Source: Candidatus Poribacteria bacterium (GTDB lineage Bacteria; Poribacteria; WGA-4E; WGA-3G). Taken from it: a stretch of 64,000 nt of DNA. The notes under the pieces are model-generated. The model was given only the letters and a program-made list of their open reading frames with translations, did no database searches and was not told the origin of the DNA. The translations under genes were made by a program, and so were the position numbers. Below are positions 5,062 to 30,830 of this stretch, in pieces (the stretch's first letter is position 1; every line of letters starts with the position of its first letter). The stretch lies in the NCBI GenBank assembly GCA_963666305.1, contig OY762722.1, positions 3,478,432 through 3,542,431 of the forward strand. Reading direction: 5' to 3'.

Positions 5062-5499
5062 AACAGGAGATTGAATCCACGGGTTTTGATGGTGTGGATA
5101 AAGAAAGAAAAAATTGTTGTTTTTTTATATTCTTTATTATATATTGCAATCAGCGGATGTTGACCGCTTGAGATTAAACGGACATCTCAATTGTATAGTG
5201 TCGTACAATGTCAGTACATGAGAACACCTTTTAGCGATTTGATCTGTGGCAGGATAGAAACACTATAAAGGTATTCCCATGACTTTGAAAGCAAACTCAA
5301 GGTGTTTATACCGTTTTAGGAGCAACTTTGGTTATTGCAACCGTAACTCGGTGTATCCCCAATGAGCCATTCTTATATCGCTTTCGTTGATTTAGTCAAA
5401 TCTATTCGGAAAAAGTTCGCCTTTCCCGTCTTTTGAAATATGAACAGCTTTAACAGCGTACCCTGAGACGTATGCCTCTTATTACAGAAGGAGACCCCA

Positions 5500-6321: not shown

Positions 6322-6328
6322 TAAAGTA

Positions 6329-6360
6329 AAAGGGCGGTGACATAAAACCGCCCTTCTTTC
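6329..6360. terminator. Bidirectional rho-independent terminator between convergent genes
   Basis: A GC stem AAGGGCGGT / ACCGCCCTT with loop GACATAAA is followed by CTTTC. It lies between the ends of 5500..6321(+) and 6380..7153(-). Confidence 0.6.
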
Positions 6361-6379
6361 AGATTCTCGATCAGTGGCT

Positions 6380-7153
6380 TTAGGCATCAGATGCTGTTAT
6401 TGCTTCCTGAACGCCGGGCCATTCATTCCAAATATTGGTGTAGGCATCATAACCGTTTTTCTCACAATCAACGTGACGTAGGCGAAAAATAACAGCGTAG
6501 CGAATATCAGCCGCCGCGTTGGGTGCCGCCGTGTGAACGATCTGGTGGTGTGTCAGGATTACATCCCCCGCTTTACCAACTATCTGCGTTGGTCCTTCAG
6601 GTAGTTCCGATTTCGGCATCCCGTTTGCCAACATCTCATGTCCTTCCTTTTTGAAATAGTCAGCGAAGAAACTATGCGATTTGGGCCAAACAGTGAAGTT
6701 TCCGCTATACGGTTCCGGCACATCCGCGAGATAAATCACAGCGAGTGCAGTAAATCCACGTCGATAAACTCCTTTTGCCATGCCATTCTTACCGCTCCCT
6801 AACCCATCAAGGTGTCCGTGTGGTTCATTGGGATCCACGTGCAACGGACCCGGAAAACGCAATGCGATCTGTCCTGAGTTCGGAATTTGAACGTTCCCTT
6901 CACCCATCAATGATTCTGAAAGTCGGAGTACAGGCGTTTTACTGAAGAGATCGACGATCTCAGAGGCTTCACGAATTTCGCCGCAGTAGGATTGCGCACG
7001 GTAGCGTTCTAAGTCCCCTTCGTTCATACCAACAGCACCTATAGAGTGATTAATTGCCTGCCGTGCCGCGTCCACCATCAGTTGCGGTACAACCCCGGGG
7101 ACAGAGATATAGCCGTTTCTATAAAACTCTAACTTCTGTTTATGACTGAGCAT
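6380..7153 (-). CDS. Phytanoyl-CoA dioxygenase (PhyH) family oxygenase
   Basis: PhyH-like motifs are present: LHVDPNEPHGHLDG, VILTHHQIVHTAAPN and YAVIFRL. This is the second of three PhyH paralogs in the window. Confidence 0.7.
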   Translation of the reverse strand: MLSHKQKLEFYRNGYISVPGVVPQLMVDAARQAINHSIGAVGMNEGDLERYRAQSYCGEIREASEIVDLFSKTPVLRLSESLMGEGNVQIPNSGQIALRFPGPLHVDPNEPHGHLDGLGSGKNGMAKGVYRRGFTALAVIYLADVPEPYSGNFTVWPKSHSFFADYFKKEGHEMLANGMPKSELPEGPTQIVGKAGDVILTHHQIVHTAAPNAAADIRYAVIFRLRHVDCEKNGYDAYTNIWNEWPGVQEAITASDA

Positions 7154-7283
7154 ATATGCTTCTCCATTTTGCGAGCATTAAAGCGTTTTACCCACTAAAA
7201 GTTTATCATAAATCAATTATAACATGTCCAAACCTGATTACCAAAAGGTTTTTGAATATCAGTGTGCCTGTAGTTTTGAAGAA

Positions 7284-8012
7284 TTAATGTGTGAGTGCAT
7301 AGACCACCGCATTGATACCGATCTGCAATGCGGCATTTGAATACTCTCGCGGATAGAAATCCTCAGCGGCATGCTCCCATGCGTCTCCGAGGTCGGTATT
7401 GAAGTTGATCATCATCATAAGCCTGCCATTGTCGTCATAGACACCGCGACAGTATGCAGGATAACCATCGTATCTTTCATACGTGCGTCCACTAAAAAGC
7501 GAGCGAAGCCCAGGAATCTGGACGAGTTTTTCGATTTTGAAGAAGCATTGGAAAATCGGATGAGATATTGGGATATCCACCGGCTCTCGTTCTGGGAAAA
7601 TCTTCTTGAATTCCGTGTAAAACCGTTCCCATTCGCGTTCGCCGTGGAAATCGTCAACGAAGATAAAACCGCCGCGTAAGAGATATTCACGTAGGTTCTC
7701 TGCTTCTCTTCGGTTCAACCTGAGACTGCCGACCTCCAACATGTAGGAAAACGGATATTCAAAGAGTTCCGTCGCACCAACTTCAATAATCTTTTCACGG
7801 GGATCTGCATCAATGTTCGTCTGTTTGCGGAGTTGCCAGATAAAGTTCCGGTCGGAGGCGGGCCAATCCACTTGCCAACTGCTGCGTCTCGTAAGTTGAC
7901 CGCCATACTGTAGACGGACGAATGTGAATCGGTCCGAATCACATTCCGAATTCGGCAGGATAACAGATACGGACATCACGATGAAAGTAGCCAACAACTG
8001 GATGGTTCGCAT
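7284..8012 (-). CDS. Secreted DUF4159-like protein (copy B)
   Basis: A signal peptide is present. The conserved block is FTFVRLQYGG...DWPASDRNF...LREYLLRGGFIFVDDFHG...MMMINFNTDLGDAWEH. The DUF4159 assignment is from memory of the family consensus. It is a paralog of 13217..13999. Confidence 0.5.
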   Translation of the reverse strand: MRTIQLLATFIVMSVSVILPNSECDSDRFTFVRLQYGGQLTRRSSWQVDWPASDRNFIWQLRKQTNIDADPREKIIEVGATELFEYPFSYMLEVGSLRLNRREAENLREYLLRGGFIFVDDFHGEREWERFYTEFKKIFPEREPVDIPISHPIFQCFFKIEKLVQIPGLRSLFSGRTYERYDGYPAYCRGVYDDNGRLMMMINFNTDLGDAWEHAAEDFYPREYSNAALQIGINAVVYALTH

Positions 8013-8163
8013 ATTTTTCCGGTTTGAAGGTAGGTTTCAACATCTGGGTAATATTTATTCCTGAATTCCTGACTTAGAGTGTAACATATGGAGGGAATTA
8101 AATCCACTCTTAAACCAGATTCGGATGTCCAAGGGCAGGTTCAAATGAAAGTAAGGATTTAGA

Positions 8164-10620
8164 CTAAAAACTTTTGGACCAAACCGTCGTAACTTGGATA
8201 CCTGTGCCAGATTCAAAGGCTTTTGCGACGTTAACTCTGAAAACAGAATCATCTCTTCCAGAATGTATACCCGGAACGTTGACGACAACAGAATTATCCT
8301 CTCCAAACTGTAGACCGATGCCGATATTTCCTTTAGGATCGAAGGTATATGCTGGACCAGATACATTCCAGACTTGTCCTTCATCAAAGAAGACAATAGC
8401 AAAAGCGTTTTTGAAAATACCCCAATCGAACAGATTGGATAAACGGTAGTGATATTCGACATTGAGTAGAAATCCCCGGTCTCCTGCAAACGTGTATGGA
8501 GAAGACGTATGTCCACTTTTGTAAGTTATTGGACCTTCAGATTCACTTTCCTGTCTATACCAAGGATACCCCCTGAGGCCTGCCATTCCACCAATGATAA
8601 ATTGGCGTTGAATTGGCAAAGTCGAGTTGGAAAACCCAAACAGAAGCCGAGTACGAACTCGGTTATTCTTTAAACGGAATGCATACCGAAAGTGCCATTG
8701 TAAACGTGTGAAATCAAAATCGGAGCCTACGGCGGCATTACTATGTTCAATGGAAAACGTGTTGTGCCAACCCACGGAACTCGTTATATTATTCAAATCG
8801 TATTGGAAGGTGAGACTCCGCATTTTGCCGGGGATTATTGATGGGTTTTCTCTTACGCGTAGCCTCGAGCCCCAATTGGCGACAAACCAATCTGTGCTTT
8901 TCTGCAGACTCGCATGTGATTCAGCAACCATTGCCAATTTGAAGAAATGGGATGGCATAATCGGTGACCACTGCAATGCGATCTCGGCACCTTGCCGCAG
9001 ATAGTAATTTTGAAAATCTGGTGTCCCAACGATACGTTGAAAAATGGGTAGTGGATTGTTGTAATTCGGAAAAAGTTCAGGAGCAACGACATCTGTCAAA
9101 CGGTGAATTTGTGCTGTGAGTCCGAGATTCCAAATGTAAGGTTTCCCCCAATTCGCTATGCCACCCATCCGGTAATGGACATGTGGGTTACCGAACGCAT
9201 AACTCGCCTTCCCAAAGAACTTTGAAGTTTGATCGCTCGATGAATCTCTGATGTTCCACGTCCAAAGGGGTCCGACATCCTTTCGTTTGCCGAGTTCAAA
9301 ACCAGTGCCGATTTCCCACCCCGTCACTCGATTAAATCCGAGGCGTAGCGGCGGATTGAGACCAAGATACGCATTCGTAGAAAGCGGTTTCTCATCAACA
9401 GTAATCGTCGCGACGTATTTTGAATTCTCCTCAGCTACCTGTAGGTTTAACTCGTCAAAGTAGGGCATCGCTTTATAGAGTGTTTTGAGTGCTTGTTCAA
9501 GGTCTTCAGAACCGTTTTCAAGTGCCTGTTGAATCTGTGCTTCCGATATCTTCTCATTTCCTTGAATGCGTATTTCGTGGATCGGGACTTCCCCTGCCAG
9601 AAATCGTGTGCCTACGGCTGAAAGTTGAGCATCTAATTCCTGTAAAACCAACTTGCCTGCTGTTGATTTGTGGACCTTGTTAGCCTGAGAACCAGAGATT
9701 TTCAAAGATTTTAGGACTGACAGGGTTCGCGTAATCGGCAGATCCGTCACAGTAATTATCGCAGTGTGCTTGGCATTCACTTCTTCAACGCGTAAAGATG
9801 CCTTTTTAGAATTATTGAGGAGCACGCTTGTAAGAATAGGCATGACTTCAGCAATGTCGCCAGATCCACTTTCGAGGACTTGCACAATGTTGGCACTTAC
9901 AATTTCGTCTACACCTTGGATTTGAATATCGTGAATTTGCTCACCATCAAAAATCCAATCCCATGACTCTGCCTGTTCTTGTATGTCTTGTAACGATGGG
10001 GATACCTCTTCAAGAGTATGGGTTGTAACAGGAGGTGTTGGCTCGACAACTTCAGGCGTTGAGGGCGGCGGAGGGGGTGCGATTTCCAGATCGCGAGGTT
10101 TAAGCGATGTCAGTTCAGAAATCTCAATACCGAGTTGATTGAGATTGAGTAGCAATTCACCAAGCTGTTTTTTCGGGATTTCGCCAACGATATTTATGAG
10201 ATACACATCGTCGTCACTTTTAACAATAACGAAGACCCCTTTGATAGTCTCATTTACTTGAAGGGTGTAGAGATGTAAATTGTCGTTTTCGAGATTGTCT
10301 TGAAAAGAGTGTCCTAATGTATTCCAGCCGCGCACCTTCAGGGTTTCTCCATAATATTGAACAACTTCCTTAAGATTGACAGACCGACTTCGATAACTGC
10401 GGAGATGTAAGTTGTCTATAGTGTTAAACAGCGGCACAATATTGGAAGTCGGTTCCTCCATCACGAGAGCAATGACACGTCTGTCTAAATCAAACTGGAA
10501 TTCAGAGGATGGCAGATTTGGAAAATCGAAGGCGACAGTGCCGTTATTCGACTGTGATTGCCCTGTAGAGGCAATGAGAAACAGGAGTGTTATCATTACT
10601 TTTGTAACAGCATATTTCAT
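8164..10620 (-). CDS. Omp85-superfamily outer-membrane beta-barrel with N-terminal extra domain and two POTRA-like domains (copy B)
   Basis: A signal peptide is present. The POTRA-like repeats are IHDIQIQGVDEIVS... and IHEIRIQGNEKISEAQIQQAL...VATITVDEKP. The Omp85 loop-6 motif is GGMAGLRGYP. The C-terminal ...VTTVWSKSF ends in Phe, a beta-barrel signature. Confidence 0.7.
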   Translation of the reverse strand: MKYAVTKVMITLLFLIASTGQSQSNNGTVAFDFPNLPSSEFQFDLDRRVIALVMEEPTSNIVPLFNTIDNLHLRSYRSRSVNLKEVVQYYGETLKVRGWNTLGHSFQDNLENDNLHLYTLQVNETIKGVFVIVKSDDDVYLINIVGEIPKKQLGELLLNLNQLGIEISELTSLKPRDLEIAPPPPPSTPEVVEPTPPVTTHTLEEVSPSLQDIQEQAESWDWIFDGEQIHDIQIQGVDEIVSANIVQVLESGSGDIAEVMPILTSVLLNNSKKASLRVEEVNAKHTAIITVTDLPITRTLSVLKSLKISGSQANKVHKSTAGKLVLQELDAQLSAVGTRFLAGEVPIHEIRIQGNEKISEAQIQQALENGSEDLEQALKTLYKAMPYFDELNLQVAEENSKYVATITVDEKPLSTNAYLGLNPPLRLGFNRVTGWEIGTGFELGKRKDVGPLWTWNIRDSSSDQTSKFFGKASYAFGNPHVHYRMGGIANWGKPYIWNLGLTAQIHRLTDVVAPELFPNYNNPLPIFQRIVGTPDFQNYYLRQGAEIALQWSPIMPSHFFKLAMVAESHASLQKSTDWFVANWGSRLRVRENPSIIPGKMRSLTFQYDLNNITSSVGWHNTFSIEHSNAAVGSDFDFTRLQWHFRYAFRLKNNRVRTRLLFGFSNSTLPIQRQFIIGGMAGLRGYPWYRQESESEGPITYKSGHTSSPYTFAGDRGFLLNVEYHYRLSNLFDWGIFKNAFAIVFFDEGQVWNVSGPAYTFDPKGNIGIGLQFGEDNSVVVNVPGIHSGRDDSVFRVNVAKAFESGTGIQVTTVWSKSF

Positions 10621-10631
10621 TTAATTCTCCT

Positions 10632-11804
10632 TTACTGTTCATTCTCGATGTTCTTCAGGCGTTGTTGTAGTTTTCTCAAGGCATCTGGAATGCGAGGTTT
10701 GCCGGGTCGATAGATAATTTCGGGTGGCACAATCCTTCCGAACATATATGACTCCGAGCGCAAACTCCATACAGGGGTTGTTATCGAACGGGAACGAATC
10801 GTCTCAGATAAATGCTCTTTCGGGGGTAGATAGAACCACTGTAGCGCGATAGAGTGCCGCGGTCCCTGAAAATAGTGAATCTCAACGGAATGGACACCTG
10901 TAGAGAGCGTTATACTGCCCCGTTTCCCCTTCCCTTCGTGAACGCCATCATTATCTACAACCAGATTTCTGTCGATGTATAGTTTTGCTCCATCATCTGA
11001 GTAAAGAGCGAAATGATACAATCCAGGTGTGTCGATTGCTAACTCGCCTCGGAAGCGAATTGCAAAATCCTCAACAACATATTGCATCTCTGGTGTCGGG
11101 AATCCTTGAGTATAATCTCTTTTAGAGACATCTAAATTTGCTGTAACAAAGGTATAGACAGGTGTCAAAAGGTCGAAATCCGGCATTCGATGGATGGGAC
11201 TACCGGGGACGTAGACTTCCCCGATTAATCCATGTCCGGCCATTACATCTGTGTCGAAGATACCGAGTCCTGCATCTATGCCATCAAGCGTTGCGAGTTC
11301 GACATCCGATGCACCTGTCCCTTTTTCAAAATGTTTTCCTGTCCCATATCCTCCGGTTCCACGTCCATTACGTCCGGGTCCACCAACCCCGGTTCCTCGC
11401 TGTCCCTCAACGACAACTGGACCCGACAGTTCGCCATCTTCACCAAAACTGGCGTTGGACACAGGACTCGGAGCATCTGATTGCGGAAGATCGGCGTATG
11501 TAACGATGTCGGGAATTACATCAGCATGGACGGGTGCCTTAGGAACGCTCACCTCTGGAGCATAGGTTGGTGCGGCGGGGGAAGAAGACGATGCTTCCGT
11601 CTCACTTACCTGTGGCACCACAGGTGTGCGTGGCGGTAAAACCCGTTGTCTTACTCGCTTCTCGGATTCTGGCTCTAATATCTCGGCGGATATGCTCTCT
11701 TTTTCTAAAGTGAAATGATTGGCAAGAAATGGCGAAATCGCTAACATCAATCCTATGTGGAGCACAAGCGATATCAATAAGGCACGGTTTGTGTATCTTC
11801 GCAT
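10632..11804 (-). CDS. TonB-like inner-membrane-anchored protein with Pro-rich linker, Gly-rich segment and C-terminal PA14 domain (copy 2)
   Basis: Six cytoplasmic residues precede a TM helix (ALLISLVLHIGLMLAISPFL). A Pro/Ser-rich linker follows. The PA14-like core is GLYHFALYSDDGAKLYIDRNLVVDNDG...HSVEIHYFQG. Confidence 0.65.
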   Translation of the reverse strand: MRRYTNRALLISLVLHIGLMLAISPFLANHFTLEKESISAEILEPESEKRVRQRVLPPRTPVVPQVSETEASSSSPAAPTYAPEVSVPKAPVHADVIPDIVTYADLPQSDAPSPVSNASFGEDGELSGPVVVEGQRGTGVGGPGRNGRGTGGYGTGKHFEKGTGASDVELATLDGIDAGLGIFDTDVMAGHGLIGEVYVPGSPIHRMPDFDLLTPVYTFVTANLDVSKRDYTQGFPTPEMQYVVEDFAIRFRGELAIDTPGLYHFALYSDDGAKLYIDRNLVVDNDGVHEGKGKRGSITLSTGVHSVEIHYFQGPRHSIALQWFYLPPKEHLSETIRSRSITTPVWSLRSESYMFGRIVPPEIIYRPGKPRIPDALRKLQQRLKNIENEQ

Positions 11805-11805
11805 T

Positions 11806-12960
11806 TTAGTTTATTTGCTCAAGCCGTTGCTGTAGTTTCTTCAACGCATTTGGCACGCGCGACTTACCCGGGCGATAGATAACTTCAGGTGGAACAATCT
11901 GTCTATAGGAATTTGGGGGTTGATAGAACCATTGAAGCGCGATTTCATAACGGGGTCCTTGGAAGTACTGAATTTCAAACGGATGTGTCCCAGTTGTTAA
12001 CTCCATACTTCCGTGTTTACCCATATCCATGAAAGGTCCCTTAAAATGCCACGATACCTGGGTATTTTTCGACAAATCCTTGCGTCCCTTGTTCCGCGTT
12101 ATTCCGTGAAGCCCATCATTATCAATAACGAGGGTGTCGGCAATATACAACTTTGAACCATCATCCGATAAAAGCCAGAAAGTGTACCTGCCGGGAGTAT
12201 CTACAGCCAACACACCGCGGAACCGAACCGCGAAATTCTCAACGACAATCTGCTTCCCTGGTATAGGAAATCCTTGCGTGTACTCTCTTACGGGTACATC
12301 TAAATTTGTTGTAATAAAGGTGTAAACTGGTGTCAAAGCCCCAAAATCGGGCATCCGCTCAATAGCGATACCGGGAACATAAGCCTGCCCAATTAACCCG
12401 TGTCCTGGCATCACGTTTGTGTCGAAGATACCGAGTCCCTCATCTACGGTATCAAGCGTTGCGAATCCTACATCTGATACACCTGTCCCATGGGAACCCA
12501 AGTGTTTTCCATTCCCATATCCACTGTTTCCGATGCCACCTACCCCGATTCCTTGCTGTCCCTCAATCACAACGGGACCTGAAAGCGCGCCGTCTTCGCC
12601 AAAACTGGCGTTGGACACAGGACTTGGAGCGTCTGATTGGGGAACATCAGCGTGTGTAACGATGTCAGGCGTTACATCAGCATGGACAGGTGCCTTCGGG
12701 ACGCTTACCTCTGGTGCGTATACCGGTGACGCAGGGGATGCGGGTGATGATTCGGTCTTGTTCACTTGTGGCACTACAGGCGAACGCGCCGGTAGAACCC
12801 GTCGTTTTACAGGCTTCTCGGATTCTGGCTCCAATATCTCAGCCGATATGCTCTCTTTTACTATGATAAATCGATTCACAAGAAGGGGTGAAATCGCTAA
12901 CATCAGCCCGATATGGAGAGCAAAGGATAGCAATAGTGCTCTATTTGTGTATCCGCGCAT
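11806..12960 (-). CDS. TonB-like inner-membrane-anchored PA14-domain protein (copy 1, tandem paralog)
   Basis: The architecture matches 10632..11804: MRGYTNRALLLSFALHIGLMLAISPLL..., a Pro-rich linker, and a PA14-like GRYTFWLLSDDGSKLYIADTLVIDNDG...HPFEIQYFQG. An AAGGAG RBS sits 9 nt before the ATG. Confidence 0.65.
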   Translation of the reverse strand: MRGYTNRALLLSFALHIGLMLAISPLLVNRFIIVKESISAEILEPESEKPVKRRVLPARSPVVPQVNKTESSPASPASPVYAPEVSVPKAPVHADVTPDIVTHADVPQSDAPSPVSNASFGEDGALSGPVVIEGQQGIGVGGIGNSGYGNGKHLGSHGTGVSDVGFATLDTVDEGLGIFDTNVMPGHGLIGQAYVPGIAIERMPDFGALTPVYTFITTNLDVPVREYTQGFPIPGKQIVVENFAVRFRGVLAVDTPGRYTFWLLSDDGSKLYIADTLVIDNDGLHGITRNKGRKDLSKNTQVSWHFKGPFMDMGKHGSMELTTGTHPFEIQYFQGPRYEIALQWFYQPPNSYRQIVPPEVIYRPGKSRVPNALKKLQQRLEQIN

Positions 12961-13150
12961 TCCATTACTCCTTATGCTCTTGGAACGGATGTGTTAACAA
13001 AAGATGTAGGGATTCGGAGATCCCTCCTACAAATATATCCGTTACATTACTACAAACGAGTTTCCAAGAAGTTGCAGTTTTTTTGATTGTCTCAGATCAT
13101 AAACATTTTTTTCGCGACTTCGCTAAGAAATTTAACATCCTATGATTAGG

Positions 13151-13182
13151 GTGACGGCACTTACGTACCCAAAGGTTGCATT
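13151..13182 (-). promoter_or_regulatory. ECF-type promoter copy (TGCAACC-N17-CGTCAC) upstream of the PA14 gene pair
   Basis: In gene orientation the sequence is AATGCAACCTTT-GGGTACGTAAGTGC-CGTCAC. It has the same architecture and spacing as the six other copies. Confidence 0.6.
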
Positions 13183-13216
13183 TTTTTTCAAAAACGCCCT
13201 ACGGAACTCACTGTAT

Positions 13217-13999
13217 TTAGTGTGTGAGCGAATAGATAACGGCGTTAATTCCCATTTTGAATGCTATATCCGAATATGCTTGCGGATAGAACGAATCCGC
13301 GGCGTGTTCCCATGCGTCTCCCCAATCGGTATTGAAGTTAATCATCATCATGAGCCTGCGGTTGTTATCATAGATTCCGAGACACCGCACGCGGCTGCCG
13401 CCAGTACTATCTCTTTCGTAAGTCCTTCCTCTGCGTGCTGAGCCTGATCCGGGAATTTGCATCAACTCGTTAATGTTATAGAAGCAGTTAAAAATCGGGT
13501 GCGAGATCGGGATGTCCTCGGGTTCACGATCCGGGAAAATTTTCTTCAACTGTTTATAAAACCGCTTCCATGCCTGTCTTCCGTGAAAATCATCGACAAC
13601 GATGAAACCACCGCGTAGCAAGTATTCCCGTAAGTTTCTCGCCTCAGCATCAGTAAATTTCAAACGCTTGACATCAACCATATAGCCAAACGGGTAACGA
13701 AAAAGTTCCCCAGAACCAACATCAATTATCTTTTCCTTTGAACTCACCGCGATATTTGTCTGCTCGCGGAGCTGCAGGATGAAGTTCCGGTCTGAAGCGG
13801 GCCAATCTGTCTCCCATTTGCCATGATACCCCCAAGAACACCTATATTTCAGACGGACGAAGGTGAATACATCAGTCTCTGACTCCTCTACTACAGCCGC
13901 AGAGGCGAAATTACCTCCGAAAATAGACGATACTATCAATATTGATACAATATGGAATGCAAAGGATAGTAAAAAAATACGATTTATGTTTCGTAGCAT
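13217..13999 (-). CDS. Secreted DUF4159-like protein (copy A)
   Basis: It is a paralog of 7284..8012 (FTFVRLKY...DWPASDRNF...LREYLLRGGFIVVDDFHG...MMMINFNTDWGDAWEH). The likely start is the ATG at 13999, preceded by AAGGA. Confidence 0.5.
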   Translation of the reverse strand: MLRNINRIFLLSFAFHIVSILIVSSIFGGNFASAAVVEESETDVFTFVRLKYRCSWGYHGKWETDWPASDRNFILQLREQTNIAVSSKEKIIDVGSGELFRYPFGYMVDVKRLKFTDAEARNLREYLLRGGFIVVDDFHGRQAWKRFYKQLKKIFPDREPEDIPISHPIFNCFYNINELMQIPGSGSARRGRTYERDSTGGSRVRCLGIYDNNRRLMMMINFNTDWGDAWEHAADSFYPQAYSDIAFKMGINAVIYSLTH

Positions 14000-14109
14000 T
14001 TCGTTGTCCTTGTTACCGTTAAAAATTAATTGGACACTTTCAAGCAATTCCTAATGCTGTTATCGTGCACTGGACAGGCACAAACTAACAGTTTATGCTA
14101 AAAATCTGA

Positions 14110-16113
14110 TTAAAAACTATAAAACCAGAGGACGTTGAATTGCACACCTCGTTTTGATTCAAAAGCTTTCGCAACGTTAAACCGTAGGAAGGAGTCGCTT
14201 TCACCGAACTGAAAACCGATCCCCGCATCGCTCTTCGGTACAAGTGTGCGCGTTTCGTCAGTTAAATTCCACGTTTGACCTGCATCAAGAAAAAGCACCA
14301 AAAAGAGGTTAAAATCAAAATCAGATTGCGTGTTTCTCCAAAAAAAGAGTTCCGGTAGGGGGTAAAAATATTCGACGTTGAAGAGGTAGCCACGGTCACC
14401 AGCAAAAGCGTAGAGTGGATAACCGTTCAATATGCCCGGTCCACCGATGGTAAATTGGCGTTGAATCGGTAGAGATTCAGTTGAAAAACTACCGATTGCC
14501 CGAGTCCGTATCCGATGTTTGCCGAGTGAATGTGCATAGCGAAGATGGAGTTGGTAGCGTGTAAAATCGAAGTCTGAACCGAAGGCGGTGTTGCTATGTT
14601 CAACCGAAAACGTGTTGTGCCAACCGAGATAATTTGTGCGAAGGTTAAGATCGTACATGAATATGACACTCTGCATCCGACCAGATGTTATGGCTGGATT
14701 TTCTCGCGCTATTGACGTTGAACGCCAATTGAAAAGATGCCAATCTGTGCTTTTTTCCAGACTTTCGTGATATTCAGCAAGAAGTGCCAACTTAAGCAAA
14801 TGCCTTGCGGGAATAGACTCCACACGTGGCAGTTTTTCCCATCGGAACGCTACTTCAACGCCAGTCTTCAAATAATAGTTGTGCAAGTTTTCCGCACCAA
14901 AAAGGTTATAGAACAAAGCACCTGGATCATTCAAAGAATGGGAAACACGATAAGGAATCACGTTGTCAGGTGTGATGTCTGCAACACGGTGGACCTTGGC
15001 ATTTATGCCAAACCCATGATACCATCTGTCAGCATCTCCCTCCAGATTGTTAAATTGTGTGTACGTCGCAAATGGCATCGTATCAATACCAATTTCGACA
15101 TCTGTTATTTTGTTACCAAACCCGTAACCTGCATATCCAAAAATATTTGAGGTCGGCATTCCATTTGAAAAACGTGCTCTTCGTAAATCCCTTTTTACAG
15201 TCGTACCCAGTTTCCAACCTGTGACCCGATTAAATCTAATCATTGGGTTCATTGTAAAGGAACCAGAAGATCGTAATGAAGCACGTTCCTTCACCGTAAT
15301 CACCGCGATATGTTTCCCCTTTTTTTCTTTAATACTCGACTCTACCGCCTCTAATTTCGCGCCCATTTTTTTTCGGAGTGTTCCTACTGCTTTTTCGATG
15401 TCCTCGTCACCAGTTTCAAGCGTTTCGAGAATCTCCGACCTATCAATTGTATGATTGCCCTGAATCTGAACTTCATGGATCTGCGAACCATCGGCAGTAC
15501 GGAACCGCGTCGGTGAAGAGGCAGGTTGTTTGTTAAAGCGACCAAACGGAAGGGGAAGACGAAAGGTCACAGTAGTCCGTAAAGAAGCAGGTTGTTCGTC
15601 GAAGTCTAACACGAGTAGCGATTTCACTTCAGGAATCTCAATGCCGAGTTTACCGAGATCCGTTAAGAGTTGACCTGCCTGTTGCAATGGAACACTGCCA
15701 ACGATATTTAGCAGATAGACCTTCTCAGCACTTTTTATAACCGCAAAGATGCCCGTGAAGATATCATCCAGGCTTGTGCCTTCCAGAGCAGCTCCGTTCA
15801 GGACATAGAGTCCGACCCTATCATCTTCCTGTATGCCGTTCCAGTCTTTCGCCTTCAAGTTTTCGCTGTAATATTGAGCAAGTTTATCATAAATACCGAC
15901 TTCATCATCGTAGATGTGGATGTAAAGGTCGCTTAGTGTATTAAAGGGTGCTGTCGGAGCAGCGAGTGCAATCAGTTCACGTGTGAAGTGGAATTGAAAC
16001 TTGGCATTTGGTATATCCGGGCAATCGAAAGGGATTGTGCCGTCTGGCGTTTCAGCAGACGTTTGCACGGATACAGTCAGTAGAACGACTATGATATATA
16101 ATATGTATTTCAT
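14110..16113 (-). CDS. Omp85-superfamily outer-membrane beta-barrel with N-terminal extra domain and one POTRA-like domain (copy A)
   Basis: Its N-terminal domain is homologous to that of 8164..10620. The POTRA-like segment is IHEVQIQGNHTIDRSEIL... The L6-like motif is GGPGILNGYP. The C-terminal ...FNVLWFYSF ends in Phe. The likely start is MKYILY at 16113. Confidence 0.65.
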   Translation of the reverse strand: MKYILYIIVVLLTVSVQTSAETPDGTIPFDCPDIPNAKFQFHFTRELIALAAPTAPFNTLSDLYIHIYDDEVGIYDKLAQYYSENLKAKDWNGIQEDDRVGLYVLNGAALEGTSLDDIFTGIFAVIKSAEKVYLLNIVGSVPLQQAGQLLTDLGKLGIEIPEVKSLLVLDFDEQPASLRTTVTFRLPLPFGRFNKQPASSPTRFRTADGSQIHEVQIQGNHTIDRSEILETLETGDEDIEKAVGTLRKKMGAKLEAVESSIKEKKGKHIAVITVKERASLRSSGSFTMNPMIRFNRVTGWKLGTTVKRDLRRARFSNGMPTSNIFGYAGYGFGNKITDVEIGIDTMPFATYTQFNNLEGDADRWYHGFGINAKVHRVADITPDNVIPYRVSHSLNDPGALFYNLFGAENLHNYYLKTGVEVAFRWEKLPRVESIPARHLLKLALLAEYHESLEKSTDWHLFNWRSTSIARENPAITSGRMQSVIFMYDLNLRTNYLGWHNTFSVEHSNTAFGSDFDFTRYQLHLRYAHSLGKHRIRTRAIGSFSTESLPIQRQFTIGGPGILNGYPLYAFAGDRGYLFNVEYFYPLPELFFWRNTQSDFDFNLFLVLFLDAGQTWNLTDETRTLVPKSDAGIGFQFGESDSFLRFNVAKAFESKRGVQFNVLWFYSF

Positions 16114-16430
16114 ATTCACTTTCTGGGCATACACGGTTTTTGGAGGTTGTAAAGGTTATTATAATAACTTAAGCGTGCCTTGTCAAATTGCTGCGTCTGA
16201 AAGGTTTAACGATGGGTCTACAAAGCGCGTTTACAGAACAGGAAAGGCGTGCTTTCTAAGTACGTCTACAGCGGGTATGGTTGAATTAAGAACTAACCCA
16301 AGTTGCTATCTTCTGATCATGAGGATACCCACTATCACTGCCTCCACGGAGTATTACAAATAGTCCAGGTAGGAGTGAAAGGATTACGTATCGCATCTGT
16401 ATCTCCTTGGTATTGTGGGTACATTCGTGC

Positions 16431-16648
16431 TAATTGGATCCGAATGTGTAACGCTTTGTAGAAGTTCCCTCACGCGCTTCTATGCTCTCCACACGCGCTT
16501 CAAACCCCTTTTTTTCGATGGCTTCTATTAAAGCCGCTTTTACACGCTCTGAGATTACTTCATTCACACCATTAGCGGGATCGGCCCCAGCGAATGCCCT
16601 TATCTGAACAATAAAGTACTACTGACAAACAGATAAATGACCACTTTA
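16431..16648 (-). pseudogene. Small putative lipoprotein ORF (~72 aa) interrupted by a 1-nt frameshift in a C3/G3 run
   Basis: A GGAGG RBS precedes ATG...MRQLKWSFICLSVVLYCSDKG (lipobox-like LYC), then a frame change at 16597-16599. The continuation AFAGADPANGVNEVISERVKAALIEAIEKKGF... is open only in the -1 frame. Confidence 0.35.
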
Positions 16649-16779
16649 GCTGACGCATCTTAATTTTCCTCCATACTTTAAAAAACTATGGTAGATTTTA
16701 CAATTACGCATACAGCGGAAAGGAACCAGGATCTGGTATGCCCAATTATGCAGAGCGTTAGAAACAATAAAAAATAGGG

Positions 16780-17349
16780 TTACTCTTCATCTTCATCACC
16801 CTCGACTTCTATAGGAATTTTGAATTCTTGAGGGTTTACCCCCTGGTCCTCAAGGTCCTTAATCTGGTGTTCAAGTTGTTCAGCATTTTCTTCCAAAGTC
16901 TTGATATAGTCCCGACTTTCATCGTTATCGCGCGCGATTTGGAGTTCTATCTGATTCGCTCGCAGAAGCTCCGGCACAGTTGCTTCCTTTTTCCGGAAAA
17001 TCTTATGTGTGAGAACTACCCACTCTTCCAAGAGAGAATGATCGCCCTTAGCGTGGATATACAAAGAGATTCTGAGTGCTTCTAATGCTTCAGCACTGTC
17101 TTTATCTTTGAATTCAAGATACTTGAGCATATATTCTTTTGCCCTTGCTTTCCGCTGCTCAAGTGGACGGGATAATAGGTAATCAAGAGATTTTAACTTA
17201 TTTGCAAGGGCTGCCTTGTCTTCTTCATTCAACCTCTCAACGATGCTGACCGATGTTTCTTCATCCACGCCATCAGGGTCGTGATCGCAGCCAGTATTTC
17301 CAGTTGTGAAGATGATAAAAAACGCGAGAAGAATAAGAAATCGGATCAT
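16780..17349 (-). CDS. Secreted/lipoprotein-like coiled-coil protein of unknown function
   Basis: A signal peptide ends NTGC. The protein is charged and helical (EEDKAALANKLKSLDY...EENAEQLEHQIKDLEDQ). Confidence 0.5.
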   Translation of the reverse strand: MIRFLILLAFFIIFTTGNTGCDHDPDGVDEETSVSIVERLNEEDKAALANKLKSLDYLLSRPLEQRKARAKEYMLKYLEFKDKDSAEALEALRISLYIHAKGDHSLLEEWVVLTHKIFRKKEATVPELLRANQIELQIARDNDESRDYIKTLEENAEQLEHQIKDLEDQGVNPQEFKIPIEVEGDEDEE

Positions 17350-17440
17350 TTTAGTGCCTCCTCAGCAATTGCAGGTTGCTTTATTCATTAAAACTGACGA
17401 TTCGCGCGTGATAGTTCATATCTCGCATCGCTTATCCACA

Positions 17441-20400
17441 TTATTCATCAAGGTTGAACCGCAGGACACCACGATTCGCGGTGCCGACATACAGTATGTT
17501 ACCATCAACAGTGAAAGAGATAACAGAGCCTGGAATTTCGGGTGTTGCCTGTTTCCATGTATTGGAATCCTCTTTCAAGAGATACACGTGTTGATTGGTC
17601 TGTCCATACACCGTTGTGCCCTCCGCTGCTAATCGGGAGACGACGAGAGATTTACCTTCAGCATCGGTTGTGACGTGCCAGTGCGTACTGTCGTTTGAAT
17701 ACGCAACACCTGTGTCGGTTGCCACATAAACGGTTGGTCCCGCGAAGGCGATCGCCTTGAATTTCTCAAAAGAGAACGGGATACCTACAGTAACATCGTT
17801 CCAGGTGTCTCCTTCATCAAACGATTGAAAGAGGTGTCCCTCCCGTTTTCCGACGTAAACAGTACTGCCCGACACGGCGATTTTGAAGCCCATAGAAGTA
17901 ATTGAATCATGAGCAGTAGCAACATCAGCGGAATAACTGTCAGGAGAGGACAATAGAGATGCGAAAGAGTCTTCGCCTGTATCTACTAACCCCGTGTTAT
18001 GCCACTCACTCATACCCGGTTTCCATCTATAAAGCGTCTTCCCGTATTCCACATAGTAGGTATCGCTACTCACGGCAAAGTTTCCAATAAACGCCATCAT
18101 ACTTGCTGAAGCTTGTTCTTGCATAACCTTATTCATGGTTTCATTTAACTGCTCAAAATCAATATCTTCGGGATTTGGTGGTTCGCCCTTTTCAAGGTTT
18201 TGCTTAGCCTTGTCCGTAAACGCTTGCATCATAATTTCGTCCATTTCTATGCGTATTTCCTGTGAATTGATACTTTCAAAAGCGGGCATACCCTCTATAA
18301 ACGCCATGCTATTGTCCTCGGTGGATAGACGAGCTATCGGCGAAGGCGAAGCCATATGATTCCCTCTCTTTACATACAAAGTATCGTCAAATGCTTCAAT
18401 AAGGACACCGGCGTCAATACCACGGGGAAGCGGGGTCCACGATTCACCCTTGTCTGCTGAGAAGACAAATCCATTTGTTGAATTTGCGTAGAGTTTATCG
18501 TTAACAGTGATGAGCGTCTGAACCGGAATACCAACGAGCCCGCTATTAAACGGATACCACGATTTGCCACCATCAATTGTGCACTGAACCCCGGACGGTC
18601 CTCCTTTGTAGAAAGTGTTTTCGTTCATCATCAGCATAGGTGGCGGCACGTTGTAACCTGACCCACCATTTACATTTAAGGCAGTCCAGGTTTCTCCGGT
18701 ATTCATGGAGTAGAAAAGTTCTCCAAACGCATCTACGACTGTAACTTTTCCCTGTGTTGCGAAGAGTTTGATACTCGGCATATAGATTTCTGTTGATTCT
18801 GCACCAGGAAATGGGAAACTTATCCCAAATTGTCCGCCTTGCTGCTTCTCTTCTCCACCCTCCTGTCTTTTCCGTGGATCTATGGAGTACCACGTATCGC
18901 CTTGATCTGTTGAGCGGTAAAGCGACCACTCATCATTCCCTGTCAGCGAAGATTTAAATTGCATCCCGATCTGATTCTGATTTGTCAGTTCGTCCCCCAC
19001 GGCAGCATAGAGACGATGTTCATCGACTGCTAAGGCATGGATGGCTGATTTGTTTTCGGACATTTCTGCTGGACGGATGGTCAATCTTTCCCATGTATCT
19101 GTGTTGAAACGATAGAGTCCACTGTCAGTCCCAGCAAACAGGGCGTTTTCAATGGCGGCGATTGCACGAATTTTTCGATCCGCGAGGTTCTCGTCATTCA
19201 GAGGTATCCACGACTTGCCGGTGTCCACAGAACGAAATATCCCTCCAATGAGAGCAAGATTCAGAGTCATATCGGCTTCTGCCCCAGGTCCCCTATCTGT
19301 TATGACCATGCCAACCGGCTGCCCTTTTGGGTGCGCACCGAGCGAAGTCCATGTCTCACCATCATCTGTAGAAGTCAATACCTCCCCATTGGTAGCGACG
19401 TAGAGCGTCCCGTCCCTCTCTACCATCTGTTGTGTGCCGCCCATCATCCAATCTTTCAGACTGAGTGATGTTGGACTTCCAGCGATGACGAGTTTCCATG
19501 AATGTCCGTCGTCTGCCATCTTATAAAAATTGGTGGAGGTTCCGGCGAAAATGTCTCCACGCGTTGTCGTGAAGAGGGTATTGACAAGCCCCCCTGCGGG
19601 TCCCTTTGTTTGTATCCACTGCGATTTCGGTGTTGAAACCTCAGTTTCATCGACAAGTGCCGCGGCGAAGAGCCTCGCATCCGGTTGCTGACCGGCACCG
19701 GGATTCTTACCGGGGACAGCCGACGTTCCTATCTGATTCCGCACTGCAGGTTTCGCAGGTGAATCTACGACCAAAATCGCCTCGATCAGATCAACCGTCC
19801 GTTCCGATGTAGCGTTTAGGTCGTAAGGTTTCTGGAAACGGGAGAGATACTGTGTGCCAGCCCCCATCAATAGGAAAATCAATACAGCCGAAGCAGCAGA
19901 AAGCACCCAAGGGATCACAGGTTTATTTGCAGTCGGTGGAGTCGGAGTGATACGTGAGACCTCGTTCATAATGTTCTGTGTTAAGTTAGCAGGCAGTTCA
20001 AAACTGTTGAGATTTTGTTGAATCATGTCTTCTTCCTTCATTAGACGATTACGAGCGCGGCTGAGCCGACTCTTAACAGTATTTGGAGATACACCGAGAA
20101 ACTCAGAAATGGCTTTGATTGTCAGTTCCCCAAGGTAGTAAAGCGTCATTACTGTGCGTTCGCTTTCTGGCAGTTTCTGAAGTAGTTTCTTAACAACTTC
20201 ACGGCGCGTTTCATCCGCTTCGGCTGCCTGTTTCTCTGCTACGTATCGAGAGTATGACACTTCATTCACCTCACTCATATCCGTAACTTCTAAAGATTGT
20301 TCCGGTGGCGGATTCTTTCGGAACCAGTCAGAACACAAATTTGCCGCAATGACATAAAGCCAGCCTGGAAACTGGTTATAGTTTTTCAAGGTACCCAGTT

Positions 20401-20575
20401 TCTGGTATGCCCTAAGAAACGCGTCCTGCGTAACTTCCTGTGCGATGTGAAAATCGCCGATCTTCCGCCACACCAGCGCGTGAACCCTTTTCTGGTATTT
20501 CGTGACTAAGGGACTGAATGCGTCCTGATCGCCTTGTAATACCCGTTGAATGAGTTCAGCATCGTTGTATTCCAT
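17441..20575 (-). CDS. Fused ECF sigma factor - TM helix - Asp-box (BNR) beta-propeller protein, paralog 1 (1044 aa)
   Basis: Sigma-70 region 2 is DFHIAQEVTQDAFLRAYQKL...WLYVIAANLC. The region 4 HTH is TVMTLYYLGELTIKAISEFLGVSPNTVKSRLSRARNRL. A single TM helix is VIPWVLSAASAVLIFLLMGAG. Seven or more SxDxGxTW Asp-boxes follow (STDDGETW, SVDTGKSW, STDQGDTW, SMNTGETW, TIDGGKSW, SADKGESW, SFDEGDTW). Confidence 0.8.
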   Translation of the reverse strand: MEYNDAELIQRVLQGDQDAFSPLVTKYQKRVHALVWRKIGDFHIAQEVTQDAFLRAYQKLGTLKNYNQFPGWLYVIAANLCSDWFRKNPPPEQSLEVTDMSEVNEVSYSRYVAEKQAAEADETRREVVKKLLQKLPESERTVMTLYYLGELTIKAISEFLGVSPNTVKSRLSRARNRLMKEEDMIQQNLNSFELPANLTQNIMNEVSRITPTPPTANKPVIPWVLSAASAVLIFLLMGAGTQYLSRFQKPYDLNATSERTVDLIEAILVVDSPAKPAVRNQIGTSAVPGKNPGAGQQPDARLFAAALVDETEVSTPKSQWIQTKGPAGGLVNTLFTTTRGDIFAGTSTNFYKMADDGHSWKLVIAGSPTSLSLKDWMMGGTQQMVERDGTLYVATNGEVLTSTDDGETWTSLGAHPKGQPVGMVITDRGPGAEADMTLNLALIGGIFRSVDTGKSWIPLNDENLADRKIRAIAAIENALFAGTDSGLYRFNTDTWERLTIRPAEMSENKSAIHALAVDEHRLYAAVGDELTNQNQIGMQFKSSLTGNDEWSLYRSTDQGDTWYSIDPRKRQEGGEEKQQGGQFGISFPFPGAESTEIYMPSIKLFATQGKVTVVDAFGELFYSMNTGETWTALNVNGGSGYNVPPPMLMMNENTFYKGGPSGVQCTIDGGKSWYPFNSGLVGIPVQTLITVNDKLYANSTNGFVFSADKGESWTPLPRGIDAGVLIEAFDDTLYVKRGNHMASPSPIARLSTEDNSMAFIEGMPAFESINSQEIRIEMDEIMMQAFTDKAKQNLEKGEPPNPEDIDFEQLNETMNKVMQEQASASMMAFIGNFAVSSDTYYVEYGKTLYRWKPGMSEWHNTGLVDTGEDSFASLLSSPDSYSADVATAHDSITSMGFKIAVSGSTVYVGKREGHLFQSFDEGDTWNDVTVGIPFSFEKFKAIAFAGPTVYVATDTGVAYSNDSTHWHVTTDAEGKSLVVSRLAAEGTTVYGQTNQHVYLLKEDSNTWKQATPEIPGSVISFTVDGNILYVGTANRGVLRFNLDE

Positions 20576-20614
20576 TACAAGCCTTCTCCAGAATCGTATT
20601 ATGTTTTAACTTAA

Positions 20615-20646
20615 GTGACGGATTTTAGGTTCTAAGAAGTTGCATT
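20615..20646 (-). promoter_or_regulatory. ECF-type promoter copy (variant -35 TGCAACT) 40 nt upstream of fused sigma paralog 1
   Basis: In gene orientation: AATAATGCAACTT-CTTAGAACCTAAAATC-CGTCAC. Confidence 0.55.
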
Positions 20647-30764: not shown

Positions 30765-30830
30765 TTTTACTCTCCTTGTATAAATAGGCTTACGTTGAAT
30801 TTGCAAGTATTATCTGTCTTGTTGATTTAA

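Follow-up and report, generated by a model that had tools for sequence, protein, structure and literature searches.

Omp85 barrels (BAM, TAM, TPS) and TolA/TonB transducers constitute the two main Gram-negative routes that act on the outer membrane, and we know of no described system in which they are joined. A gene cluster of Candidatus Poribacteria, an uncultured, sponge-associated phylum, places genes for Omp85 barrels beside genes for proteins with a TonB-like layout. This raises the question of whether the products of this cluster act together across the envelope and, if so, how they relate to known systems. The cluster lies in a window of 64,000 nt from contig OY762722.1, to which all coordinates refer; loci of relatives are labelled L001-L037. 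It consists of six minus-strand genes (7284-16134) in the order Omp85-A, DUF4159-A, PA14-1, PA14-2, Omp85-B, and DUF4159-B. An initial annotation had this gene order and the coordinates correct, and the PA14, Omp85, POTRA, and DUF4159 domain calls that it put forward for checking were all recovered by Pfam scan. It had also failed to recognise the combination as a described system, and a literature search indeed found no paper on the PA14-Omp85-DUF4159 combination; searches on DUF4159, DUF4252, Poribacteria with PA14, Poribacteria with Omp85, and TonB-like with PA14 yielded nothing relevant beyond gene-table mentions. The features considered here are as follows.

17441..20575, minus strand: candidate regulator, an ECF sigma factor fused to a BNR/sortilin-type domain
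16158..16186, minus strand: sigma-70 promoter TTGACA-17-TATAAT of Omp85-A/DUF4159-A, 12 of 12 consensus positions
14110..16134, minus strand: Omp85-A, likely true start ATG 16116, Pfam Omp85 E 5.5e-9
13217..14047, minus strand: DUF4159-A, likely ATG 13999 (260 aa), Pfam DUF4159 E 9e-51
13153..13180, minus strand: distal ECF-type promoter motif TGCAAC-N18-CGTC upstream of PA14-1, one of seven exact matches
13048..13076, minus strand: proximal ECF-like element TGCAAC-N18-TAGTA, near-invariant across the window, L001, L002, and L004
13008..13025, minus strand: leader hairpin AGGGATCTCCGAATCCCT with T-run in the 5' UTR of PA14-1, from a terminator-like scan
11806..12960, minus strand: PA14-1, Pfam PA14 E 5.6e-14
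10632..11804, minus strand: PA14-2, Pfam PA14 E 5.9e-13
8164..10620, minus strand: Omp85-B, Pfam Omp85 E 1e-8
7284..8012, minus strand: DUF4159-B, Pfam DUF4159 E 8e-51

A gap of 1 nt lies between PA14-1 and PA14-2, and one of 11 nt between PA14-2 and Omp85-B. Within-pair identity amounts to 63% for DUF4159, 62% for PA14, and 31-39% for Omp85, and the paralog pairs in the cluster are, as judged by sequence, real and old.

The two PA14 proteins score 52.6 and 49.3 bits against PF07691 (gathering cut-off 24), and the TonB-like layout described previously holds. A 7-aa cytoplasmic stub leads into a transmembrane (TM) helix (residues 8-28); further along lie a linker that is 20% Pro and 14% Ser (45-118), a stretch that is 30% Gly (119-172), and the PA14 tip, which spans approximately residues 173-362. 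The C-terminal domain is PA14 and not TonB_C, as had been proposed; in Pfam and NCBIfam, there was no match to TonB_C (PF03544/TIGR01352) at E<=0.1 and none to TolA_C. Residues 45-172, which are Pro/Ser- and Gly-rich, are not predicted to be helical and contain no equivalent of the helical domain II of TolA. PA14-1 carries a 29-aa insert inside the PA14 domain and a C-terminal amphipathic helix; PA14-2 shares this architecture without the insert inside PA14, and here an insert of ~25 aa precedes the C-terminal helix. The AF2 model of PA14-1, derived from 18 sequences, has a mean pLDDT of 41 and is usable for the TM helix and the beta-sandwich core only. A profile search identified the polysaccharide-sensing PA14 dyad of RsgI3 (6qe7, E 1e-14) as the closest solved PA14. 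Two other interpretations of these proteins were considered and rejected, namely, a cleavable signal peptide at the N-terminus, which has no AxA site and contains an invariant polar S/H pair, and a role as anti-sigma factors, given that the cytoplasmic stub is merely 7 aa long.

The case for a TonB-like anchor turned out to be stronger than first argued. When distant family members are aligned over N-terminal residues 1-65 (A4), which include the TM helix, no column other than S12 and H16 is invariant; both are also invariant in alignment A1, and S-x3-H is kept in ~40 distinct family members. Beyond the PA14 family, DUF4159-A is the sole other ORF in ~0.75 Mb of Poribacteria DNA that contains the anchor motif. 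Of the SHLS motif of TonB, the S-x3-H half is present and the downstream L/S half is out of register, with Ser at +12 versus +15. The TolA model TIGR02794 was the top family for three of five N-terminal fragments (E 0.004-0.11) and matched at the model's own N-terminus (model positions 2 to ~65 or 88), with sub-threshold scores of 11.7-16.3 bits versus a cut-off of 59.45; PRK09510 (TolA) also matched sub-threshold (E 0.012). In a PDB search, the TolA TM helix was the second and third best match with S and H aligned, at a non-significant E of ~2.3. The helix is followed by a short hydrophobic strand, ISAEIL in the PA14 proteins, which reads ISVTMV in TonB and IDAVMV in TolA. Going by these sequence features, the two PA14 proteins are bitopic and reside in the inner membrane, each with a single helix of the TolA/TonB-type S-x3-H kind. 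A tblastn search with E. coli queries found no credible ExbB, ExbD, TolQ, or TolR in the window or in the 37 flanking loci L001-L037.

The same anchor motif links DUF4159-A to this family. Both members of the pair match the DUF4159 model above its gathering score (172.7 and 172.8 bits), and the sole solved relative, 4i66, is a protein without assigned function. Their description as secreted proteins suits DUF4159-B, which has an ordinary signal peptide and is presumed to be a soluble periplasmic protein, but is too simple for DUF4159-A, the N-terminus of which (MLRNINRIFLLSFAFHIVSIL..ASA) bears the S-x3-H motif of the PA14 proteins and includes an ASA site as a possible cleavage point. In L001, DUF4159-A is reduced to a C-terminal remnant. 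In one genome, a gene at 8125-9435 of L037 encodes DUF4159 (E 1e-48) mounted on the PA14-type anchor and linker; over the first 186 aa it shares 60% identity with PA14-2 (E 2e-66), and the protein ends in the PA14-type C-terminal helix. This fusion may be read as domain-swap (Rosetta-stone-type) evidence that links DUF4159 to the PA14 scaffold.

Both barrels exceed the gathering cut-off of 24 for PF01103 (36.4 and 35.4 bits) and share 31% identity at the N-terminus and 39% at the C-terminus. In Omp85-A, the signal peptide is followed by a DUF4252-like N-terminal domain, a single POTRA, and the Omp85 barrel. Omp85-B likewise has a signal peptide, after which come DUF4252 (aa 43-156), two POTRA domains (POTRA1 and POTRA2) separated by a beta-hairpin, and a barrel of ~16 strands. 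Contrary to the earlier claim, the N-terminal domain of ~140 aa is not novel but corresponds to Pfam DUF4252 (PF14060; E 1.6e-6 in Omp85-B, 28.7 bits versus a gathering cut-off of 23.9), which is precomputed in most orthologs. In Omp85-A it is assigned by homology only, the upstream-type barrels of L006 and L007 scoring 22.5 and 16.8 bits; a sequence search for the DUF4252 region found no solved relative. In a scan of the region by itself, the POTRA of Omp85-B scores 21.7 bits versus a cut-off of 21.3, and the AF2 model of Omp85-B contains two beta-alpha-alpha-beta-beta units of the POTRA type; the single POTRA of Omp85-A is assigned by homology to Omp85-B. With a mean pLDDT of 60.6 and a pTM of 0.38, the Omp85-B model suits the domain order and the match to BamA and TamA, its best Foldseek matches, but not fine structure. 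The last residue is aromatic in both barrels (...WFYSF in Omp85-A, ...WSKSF in Omp85-B), and the L6 motifs are those annotated earlier, IGGMAGLRGY in Omp85-B and IGGPGILNGY in Omp85-A. Relative to the L6 consensus (V/I/L)RG(F/Y), which Omp85-B matches with LRGY, Omp85-A reads LNGY and has lost the Arg. Across loci, L6 of the barrel upstream of PA14 invariably reads NGY, and that of the downstream barrel usually RGY. Scores for the BamA equivalog TIGR03303 (24-27 bits versus a cut-off of 297) and the TamA equivalog (16-20 bits versus 625) are low, TamA and TamL models match weakly, and ShlB (PF03865) was matched by Omp85-A only, below its cut-off (16.7 versus 22.7 bits). By these profiles, Omp85-A and Omp85-B are divergent paralogs of a BamA/TamA-like barrel and neither BamA nor TamA.

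The ECF-type promoter reported upstream of PA14-1 is real, as TGCAAC-N18-CGTC has seven exact matches in the window, including the one at 13153-13180, versus 0.13 expected, all of which are intergenic and on the minus strand. Of the module, which had been placed under this promoter as a whole, only PA14-1 through DUF4159-B lie behind it; Omp85-A/DUF4159-A have a housekeeping-type sigma-70 consensus promoter that is kept in L004. Upstream of the tandem PA14 genes, the ECF motif is kept in L001-3, L027, and L028, and the leader hairpin before PA14-1 in L001 and L004; Rfam gave no family match over 6000-21000, leader hairpin included. The candidate regulator consists of an ECF sigma factor (residues 1-190), one TM helix (~218-240), and a BNR/sortilin-type domain of ~800 aa. 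The ECF motif also stands upstream of the membrane-spanning ECF sigma genes; the copy at 20617-20644 is the promoter motif of this fused sigma gene itself, and the position of the gene is kept in L001, L004, L027, and L028. A TonB-dependent receptor gene in the window has this promoter motif upstream as well.

Conservation of the neighbourhood, which had been set as a check, was assessed in 26 GTDB species-representative Poribacteria loci and found to be strong: 17 of the 26 keep the full PA14-Omp85-DUF4159 order, Omp85 adjoins PA14 in 21, DUF4159 occurs in the cluster in 20, and barrels flank PA14 on both sides in 13. Gene order is retained despite protein identities of only 35-60% and across three or more types of paralogous locus, and the linkage persists in paralogous holA-adjacent loci that have no ECF genes or ECF motif nearby; L007-type loci read ECF-236aa-Omp85-PA14-ECF. 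The PA14-anchor gene stands alone in L005, L008, and L033, and is accompanied by DUF4159 without a barrel in L009, L015, L022, and L025. Among the proteins found, the full-length anchor-linker-PA14 protein occurs in Candidatus Poribacteria only, and PA14-domain genes outside Poribacteria have no comparable Omp85/DUF4159 neighbours.

The reading favoured here, with a probability of roughly 40%, is that the cluster encodes a trans-envelope assembly that is specific to Poribacteria, partly induced through ECF sigma, and similar to Tol/TonB and TAM without belonging to either. In such an assembly, the anchor of the PA14 proteins would sit in the inner membrane, where it may dock with a TolQR/ExbBD-type stator whose genes lie elsewhere, and the Pro/Ser- and Gly-rich linker of ~145 residues would span the periplasm. 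On the barrel side, DUF4252/POTRA may then serve as the contact face for the C-terminal helix and for the head (PA14 or DUF4159), so that glycan binding by PA14 would be coupled to barrel action at the outer membrane, i.e., the assembly or export of surface components, or membrane tethering. The domain calls, the synteny, the anchor, the domain swap in L037, the positional barrel classes, the BamA/TamA likeness of the barrels, the polysaccharide-sensing nearest solved PA14, and the ECF motif are consistent with a joint assembly; the sub-threshold TolA matches, the lack of stator genes nearby, the variable gene content, and the weak AF2 models count against it. A bolder version, in which the PA14/DUF4159 proteins form a third class of TolA/TonB-type transducers that couples a proton-motive-force stator to Omp85 barrels, is a long shot. 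If true, it would imply an energised Omp85 translocon, or Omp85-based cell-surface signalling gated by glycan binding; to our knowledge, Omp85 machines are currently thought to run without direct inner-membrane energy input.

It is unlikely, though worth serious weighing, that the barrels instead thread the linker or export the PA14 head to the cell surface in a manner akin to two-partner secretion, with PA14 serving as an adhesin or glycan receptor for polysaccharides of sponge or environmental origin and the N-terminal helix as a tether only. The closest PA14 relatives beyond the phylum are mostly multi-repeat giants of 1000-4000 aa (50%-cluster search), a type of protein presumed to be extracellular; the Lap adhesin 6m8m is among the solved structures matched by PA14; the Pro/Gly-rich stretch of ~145 residues would, from its length, suffice for periplasm plus barrel; and Omp85 genes directly flank the cargo-like PA14 gene. 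Against surface export, the PA14 proteins have neither a TPS/haemagglutination-activity domain (Pfam) nor a cleavable signal peptide, the ShlB/TpsB match is sub-threshold and confined to Omp85-A, and the barrels are nearer to BamA/TamA by both profile and fold. Moreover, the invariant polar S/H pair and a 60%-conserved linker would be unexpected in a passive tether.

Less probable still is a relay like cell-surface signalling, formed by the DUF4252 of the barrels, the PA14 proteins, and the membrane-spanning ECF sigma factor (sigma-TM-BNR), in which PA14 would sense polysaccharide and the sigma factor would then induce a regulon that includes the PA14 operon. Such a relay would fit the nearest solved PA14, a sensor domain of the anti-sigma factor RsgI3, as well as the promoter motif common to the PA14 operon and the sigma genes, the arrangement of L007-type loci, and the ECF motif that precedes the TonB-dependent receptor gene. 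In tables of PMC10101095 and PMC10434189, DUF4252 genes of Porphyromonas gingivalis also sit in sigma-hypothetical-DUF4252 runs (PG0214-16, PG0985-87). However, the PA14 proteins cannot bind a sigma factor because of the 7-aa stub, the holA-type modules lack ECF genes and motif, and a module that a sigma factor controls need not belong to the sensing pathway of that factor. A similarly low likelihood is given to co-inherited but functionally independent envelope proteins that form no complex (e.g., a spare barrel, a periplasmic lectin for peptidoglycan or envelope glycan, and a DUF4159 enzyme), kept together by shared regulation or ancestry only. The variability of the module (PA14 alone, PA14 with DUF4159 and no barrel, loss of DUF4159-A) and the different promoters of the two cluster halves would agree with independence, whereas the gene order kept at such low identities across paralogous locus types, the barrel class set by position relative to PA14, the DUF4159 swapped onto the PA14 scaffold, and the absence of such neighbours around PA14-domain genes outside Poribacteria speak against it.

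What makes the module notable is its conservation across a whole candidate phylum, the placement of a lectin-type domain on a TolA/TonB-style anchor beside two specialised barrels, and the partial wiring to an ECF sigma factor of an unusual, membrane-spanning one-component type. Should its parts interact, the module would establish a new subfamily of Omp85 proteins with their own inner-membrane partner and provide a first functional context for DUF4159 and DUF4252, and it might explain glycan sensing or handling at the envelope of these sponge symbionts.

The favoured trans-envelope assembly can be set beside several known systems. By their domain content, neither the barrels nor the PA14 proteins belong to TpsB/TpsA two-partner secretion. 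RsgI-type anti-sigma factors (Clostridia RsgI3, 6qe7) resemble the PA14 proteins in being single-pass proteins with an extracytoplasmic PA14 sensor domain and a genetic tie to an alternative sigma factor; here, however, the cytoplasmic anti-sigma domain RsgI_N is missing, with only 7 residues in its place, the host envelope is of the Gram-negative type and contains outer-membrane barrels, and the sigma factor is an ECF with its own fused membrane and sensor part. TAM likewise pairs a gene for a POTRA-bearing Omp85 barrel with one for a signal-anchored protein long enough for the periplasm, and TamA and TamL give weak profile matches, TamA being among the best structural matches of the barrel. 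In contrast to TAM, the module has no AsmA/DUF490 (TamB-like) domain, its barrels carry DUF4252 and only one or two POTRA and score far below the TamA cut-off, and the set includes two barrel paralogs and a DUF4159 protein. Like the PA14 proteins, TolA and TonB have a single-pass N-terminal anchor in which S-x3-H is invariant; a short hydrophobic strand follows the helix, and a long periplasmic spacer of non-globular type leads to a globular head at the C-terminus. They differ in that the head here is PA14 (DUF4159 in L037) instead of TonB_C/TolA_C, helical domain II is lacking, no stator genes were found in the window or the 37 flanking loci, and an Omp85 barrel, instead of a TonB-dependent receptor or Pal/TolB, is the outer-membrane partner encoded next door. 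The Agl-Glt gliding machinery of Myxococcus combines the TonB-like GltG and GltJ, which keep a TonB_C-like domain unlike the PA14 proteins, with a TolQR-like motor and outer-membrane partners, and we know of no report that assigns its platform proteins to the Omp85 family. In concept it matches what is proposed here, in that TonB/TolA-like anchored proteins join an inner-membrane motor to an adhesion-linked outer-membrane platform.

Six minus-strand open reading frames across 7284-16134 make up the module, namely, Omp85-A, DUF4159-A, PA14-1, PA14-2, Omp85-B, and DUF4159-B. This is the gene order given by the initial annotation, and all of its domain calls were recovered by Pfam, i.e., Omp85 (E 5.5e-9 in Omp85-A and 1.1e-8 in Omp85-B), DUF4159 (E 9e-51 in DUF4159-A and 8e-51 in DUF4159-B), and PA14 (E 5.6e-14 in PA14-1 and 5.9e-13 in PA14-2). 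Identity between paralogs amounts to 63% for DUF4159, 62% for PA14, and 31% (N-terminal part) and 39% (barrel) for Omp85-A versus Omp85-B, and the three pairs are judged to be real and old.

Candidatus Poribacteria, an uncultured phylum, is the source of the closest homologs (94% identical) and of every named homolog. In a scan of 185,579 GTDB species, each represented by one genome, with prefilter patterns that lay inside the PA14 domain, full-length matches to anchor (the N-terminal TM helix), linker, and PA14 domain were found in Poribacteria only (26 loci, one labelled "uncultured bacterium"). The other matches among the best 80 aligned over the PA14 domain alone, and those outside Poribacteria had no Omp85 or DUF4159 neighbours. 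Synteny, proposed beforehand as a check, is conserved across the 26 loci: PA14 is followed by Omp85 and then DUF4159 in 17, at least one barrel is adjacent in 21, barrels lie on both sides of PA14 in 13, and DUF4159 is included in 20. At least three paralogous locus types were distinguished (L001-L037 denote the Poribacteria loci compared with the window):

Beside a fused sigma gene, tandem PA14 genes: window, L001, L004, L027, L028
Beside holA, a single PA14 gene without the ECF motif: L006, L011, L012 and others
Embedded among ECF genes: L007, L030, L035

PA14 stands alone in L005, L008, and L033, and is accompanied by DUF4159 without a barrel in L009, L015, L022, and L025. Judged by sequence, the module is real and conserved, and its function is a predicted one. 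A Verrucomicrobiales MAG locus (L091) has a DUF4159-like region in an ORF of 531 aa (4404-5999; tblastn only, 22% identity, E 1e-12) and, about 4 kb downstream, a 710-aa PA14-domain protein (9287-11419); it is the only non-Poribacteria locus of 54 with both domains nearby, which may be a coincidence.

The L6 motifs were as previously noted, LRGY in Omp85-B and LNGY in Omp85-A. Among the loci compared, the barrel upstream of PA14 always carries NGY, and the downstream barrel RGY, rarely KGY or SGY; L6 class is thus fixed by the side of PA14, which argues that the two barrels are distinct, anciently fixed partners. The N-terminal domain of about 140 aa that had been considered novel is already known as Pfam DUF4252 (PF14060), which was matched in Omp85-B (E 1.6e-6) and is found in the precomputed annotation of most barrel orthologs. 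Upstream-type barrels at other loci match it too, with scores close to the cut-off or under it. Omp85-B has two POTRA units (21.7 bits versus a Pfam cut-off of 21.3 with the region scanned alone), seen in its AF2 model as beta-alpha-alpha-beta-beta at 231-293 and 349-410 with a hairpin in between, and Omp85-A has one; both barrels end in ...SF. In NCBIfam the barrels are nearest to BamA/TamA/TamL, yet far under the equivalog cut-offs. A Foldseek search with the Omp85-B model returned BamA and TamA as best solved matches, at a TM-score of only ~0.26 because the AF2 model is poor.

The architecture described earlier for the PA14 proteins, i.e., a stub, a single helix, Pro-rich and Gly-rich stretches, and a C-terminal PA14 domain, was borne out as follows:

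N-terminal 7 residues: stub
Residues 8-28: TM helix
Residues 45-118: Pro/Ser/Val-rich stretch, 20% Pro
Residues 119-172: Gly-rich stretch, 30% Gly
Residues about 173-362: PA14 domain
C-terminus: conserved amphipathic helix, IP(D/E)ALKKLQQRL

In an alignment of residues 1-65 of distant PA14-anchor members, S12 and H16 are the only invariant columns, and S-x3-H is the signature of TonB and TolA anchors docking in ExbB/TolQ. With the N-terminal profile against 177,635 PDB sequences, the TolA TM helix ranked second and third, its S and H lining up with those of the profile (E ~2.3, not significant). TIGR02794 (TolA) was the top NCBIfam family for three of five N-terminal fragments (E 0.004-0.11, below threshold), aligning at the model's own N-terminus, and PRK09510 (TolA) matched an N-terminal fragment at E 0.012, also below threshold. 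These sub-threshold matches agree with each other and are consistent with a TolA-type anchor. The "linker" is more than a free spacer: it keeps 60% identity even where the heads (the C-terminal globular domains) of the compared proteins differ. Among solved structures, the closest PA14 is the polysaccharide-sensing dyad of the anti-sigma factor RsgI3 (6qe7; E 1e-14), and a Lap adhesin PA14 was matched as well; both would fit glycan binding but do not prove it.

The same anchor is found on a DUF4159 protein. Translated from its most likely start, the ATG at 13999, DUF4159-A begins with MLRNINRIFLLSFAFHIVSIL (MRRHTNRIFLLSFWFHVV in L004) and carries the TNR..LLSFxxH anchor seen in the PA14 proteins, with an ASA site after it; DUF4159-B starts with an ordinary signal peptide. 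A scan of every ORF of 150 aa or more from the window and 37 Poribacteria loci found the anchor motif in PA14-anchor proteins and DUF4159-A only. In L037, a 436-aa natural fusion (8125-9435) consists of the entire PA14-type scaffold (anchor, linker, and Gly-rich segment) followed by DUF4159 (E 1e-48) and the common C-terminal helix, within an Omp85(NGY)-[anchor-DUF4159]-PA14-Omp85-DUF4159 order equal to that of the window. PA14 and DUF4159 can thus replace each other as heads of a shared scaffold. The only solved DUF4159 relative is 4i66, an uncharacterised Haliangium protein. DUF4159-A has been lost by deletion from the L001 genome, where only its last ~20 codons (...INAVIYSLTH) remain between Omp85-A and the ECF promoter (9538-9600).

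We favour a reading in which the module proteins would form one trans-envelope assembly: the anchor would dock in a TolQR/ExbBD-type stator, DUF4252/POTRA would be engaged by the head (PA14 or DUF4159) together with the C-terminal helix, and the ligand would be a glycan. No stator genes (ExbB, ExbD, TolQ, or TolR) were found near the module in the window and 37 flanking loci; a stator may be encoded elsewhere, as tonB is often unlinked from exbBD. Alternatively, the PA14 head may be displayed at the surface or exported in a TPS-like manner, although features of TPS are absent from the module. The proteins may also be independent and merely co-inherited; the head swap in L037 is the strongest evidence in this study that PA14 and DUF4159 act at the same place. 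A signalling relay that would link DUF4252 and PA14 to a membrane-spanning ECF sigma factor is a further alternative; in P. gingivalis, DUF4252 genes occur in sigma-hypothetical-DUF4252 runs according to the gene tables of PMC10101095 and PMC10434189.

The products of the fused sigma genes start with a sigma domain (1-190), cross the membrane once (TM helix at ~218-240), and continue with BNR/sortilin-type beta-propeller repeats over 700-800 aa. The motif TGCAAC-N18-CGTC has seven exact matches in the window versus 0.13 expected, all intergenic and on the minus strand. These sites and other regulatory features are:

17441-20575, 26378-29209, 32567-35392, 44133-47198, minus: four fused, one-component ECF sigma paralogs
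35748-36347: plain ECF sigma gene
13153-13180, minus: motif upstream of PA14-1
20617-20644, minus: motif upstream of the fused sigma gene at 17441-20575
29251-29278, minus: motif upstream of a fused sigma gene
30833-30860, minus: motif upstream of a 478-aa redoxin/AhpC-domain protein gene (29370-30806)
35435-35462, minus: motif upstream of another fused sigma gene
48662-48689, minus: motif upstream of a PD40 beta-propeller protein gene (47305-48333)
51458-51485, minus: motif upstream of a TonB-dependent receptor gene (48965-51046)
13048-13076, minus: proximal element TGCAAC-N18-TAGTA, almost invariant in window, L001, and L004
13008-13025, minus: hairpin AGGGATCTCCGAATCCCT and T-run in the 5' leader of PA14-1
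16158-16186: sigma-70 promoter of Omp85-A/DUF4159-A, 12/12 consensus, conserved in L004

Taken together, the motif copies delineate a putative regulon with seven or more promoters within the 64 kb, and their presence before three of the four fused sigma genes suggests auto- or cross-regulation. The motif is conserved in other loci as well, both ahead of the tandem PA14 genes (L001-L003, L027, and L028) and ahead of the fused sigma gene (L001, L004, L020, L028, and L036). The ECF promoter to which the whole module had been assigned is real upstream of PA14-1, but Omp85-A/DUF4159-A do not lie behind it and have a sigma-70 promoter of their own. The leader hairpin has counterparts in L004 (8760-8780) and L001 (~9960) and is nearly invariant, even though protein identity between these genomes is only about 60-80%; it matched no Rfam family and could be an attenuator or RNA-stability element.

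Other genes around the module are:

16780-17349, minus: ORF of 189 aa that separates Omp85-A from the fused sigma gene; its N-terminus (..FTTGNTGC) resembles that of a lipoprotein, and it matches no Pfam family
964-1800, 1821-2570, 5500-6321, 6380-7153, 51533-52438: recurring PhyH (phytanoyl-CoA dioxygenase) and LamG/Laminin_G_3 genes
3100-5061, plus: 653-aa protein of an uncharacterised multi-pass family, DUF6785 (E 6e-149) and DUF6784

The slot of the 189-aa ORF holds no gene in L004 and a 77-aa gene in L001. PhyH and LamG/Laminin_G_3 families also flank the module in L001, L004, L006, and L011, and their recurrence looks like a Poribacteria-typical gene-family expansion. In L005, a MoxR-type AAA+ gene is convergent to the PA14-anchor gene, and Eco57I-like and Piwi (prokaryotic Argonaute) genes lie a few kb away (neighbourhood at 11220-12212 and 14272-19823).

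Searches of the available literature library found no paper on this combination, in line with the initial annotation, and no description of DUF4159 or of a DUF4252-Omp85 fusion. The module differs from TonB in lacking TonB_C, from TolA in lacking domains II and III, and from TamA-TamB in lacking TamB/AsmA-like domains, and its barrels fail the equivalog cut-offs of both BamA and TamA. Functionally it would come closest to a mixture of two systems, TamA-TamB and TolA/TonB acting with an outer-membrane partner, without being a member of either.
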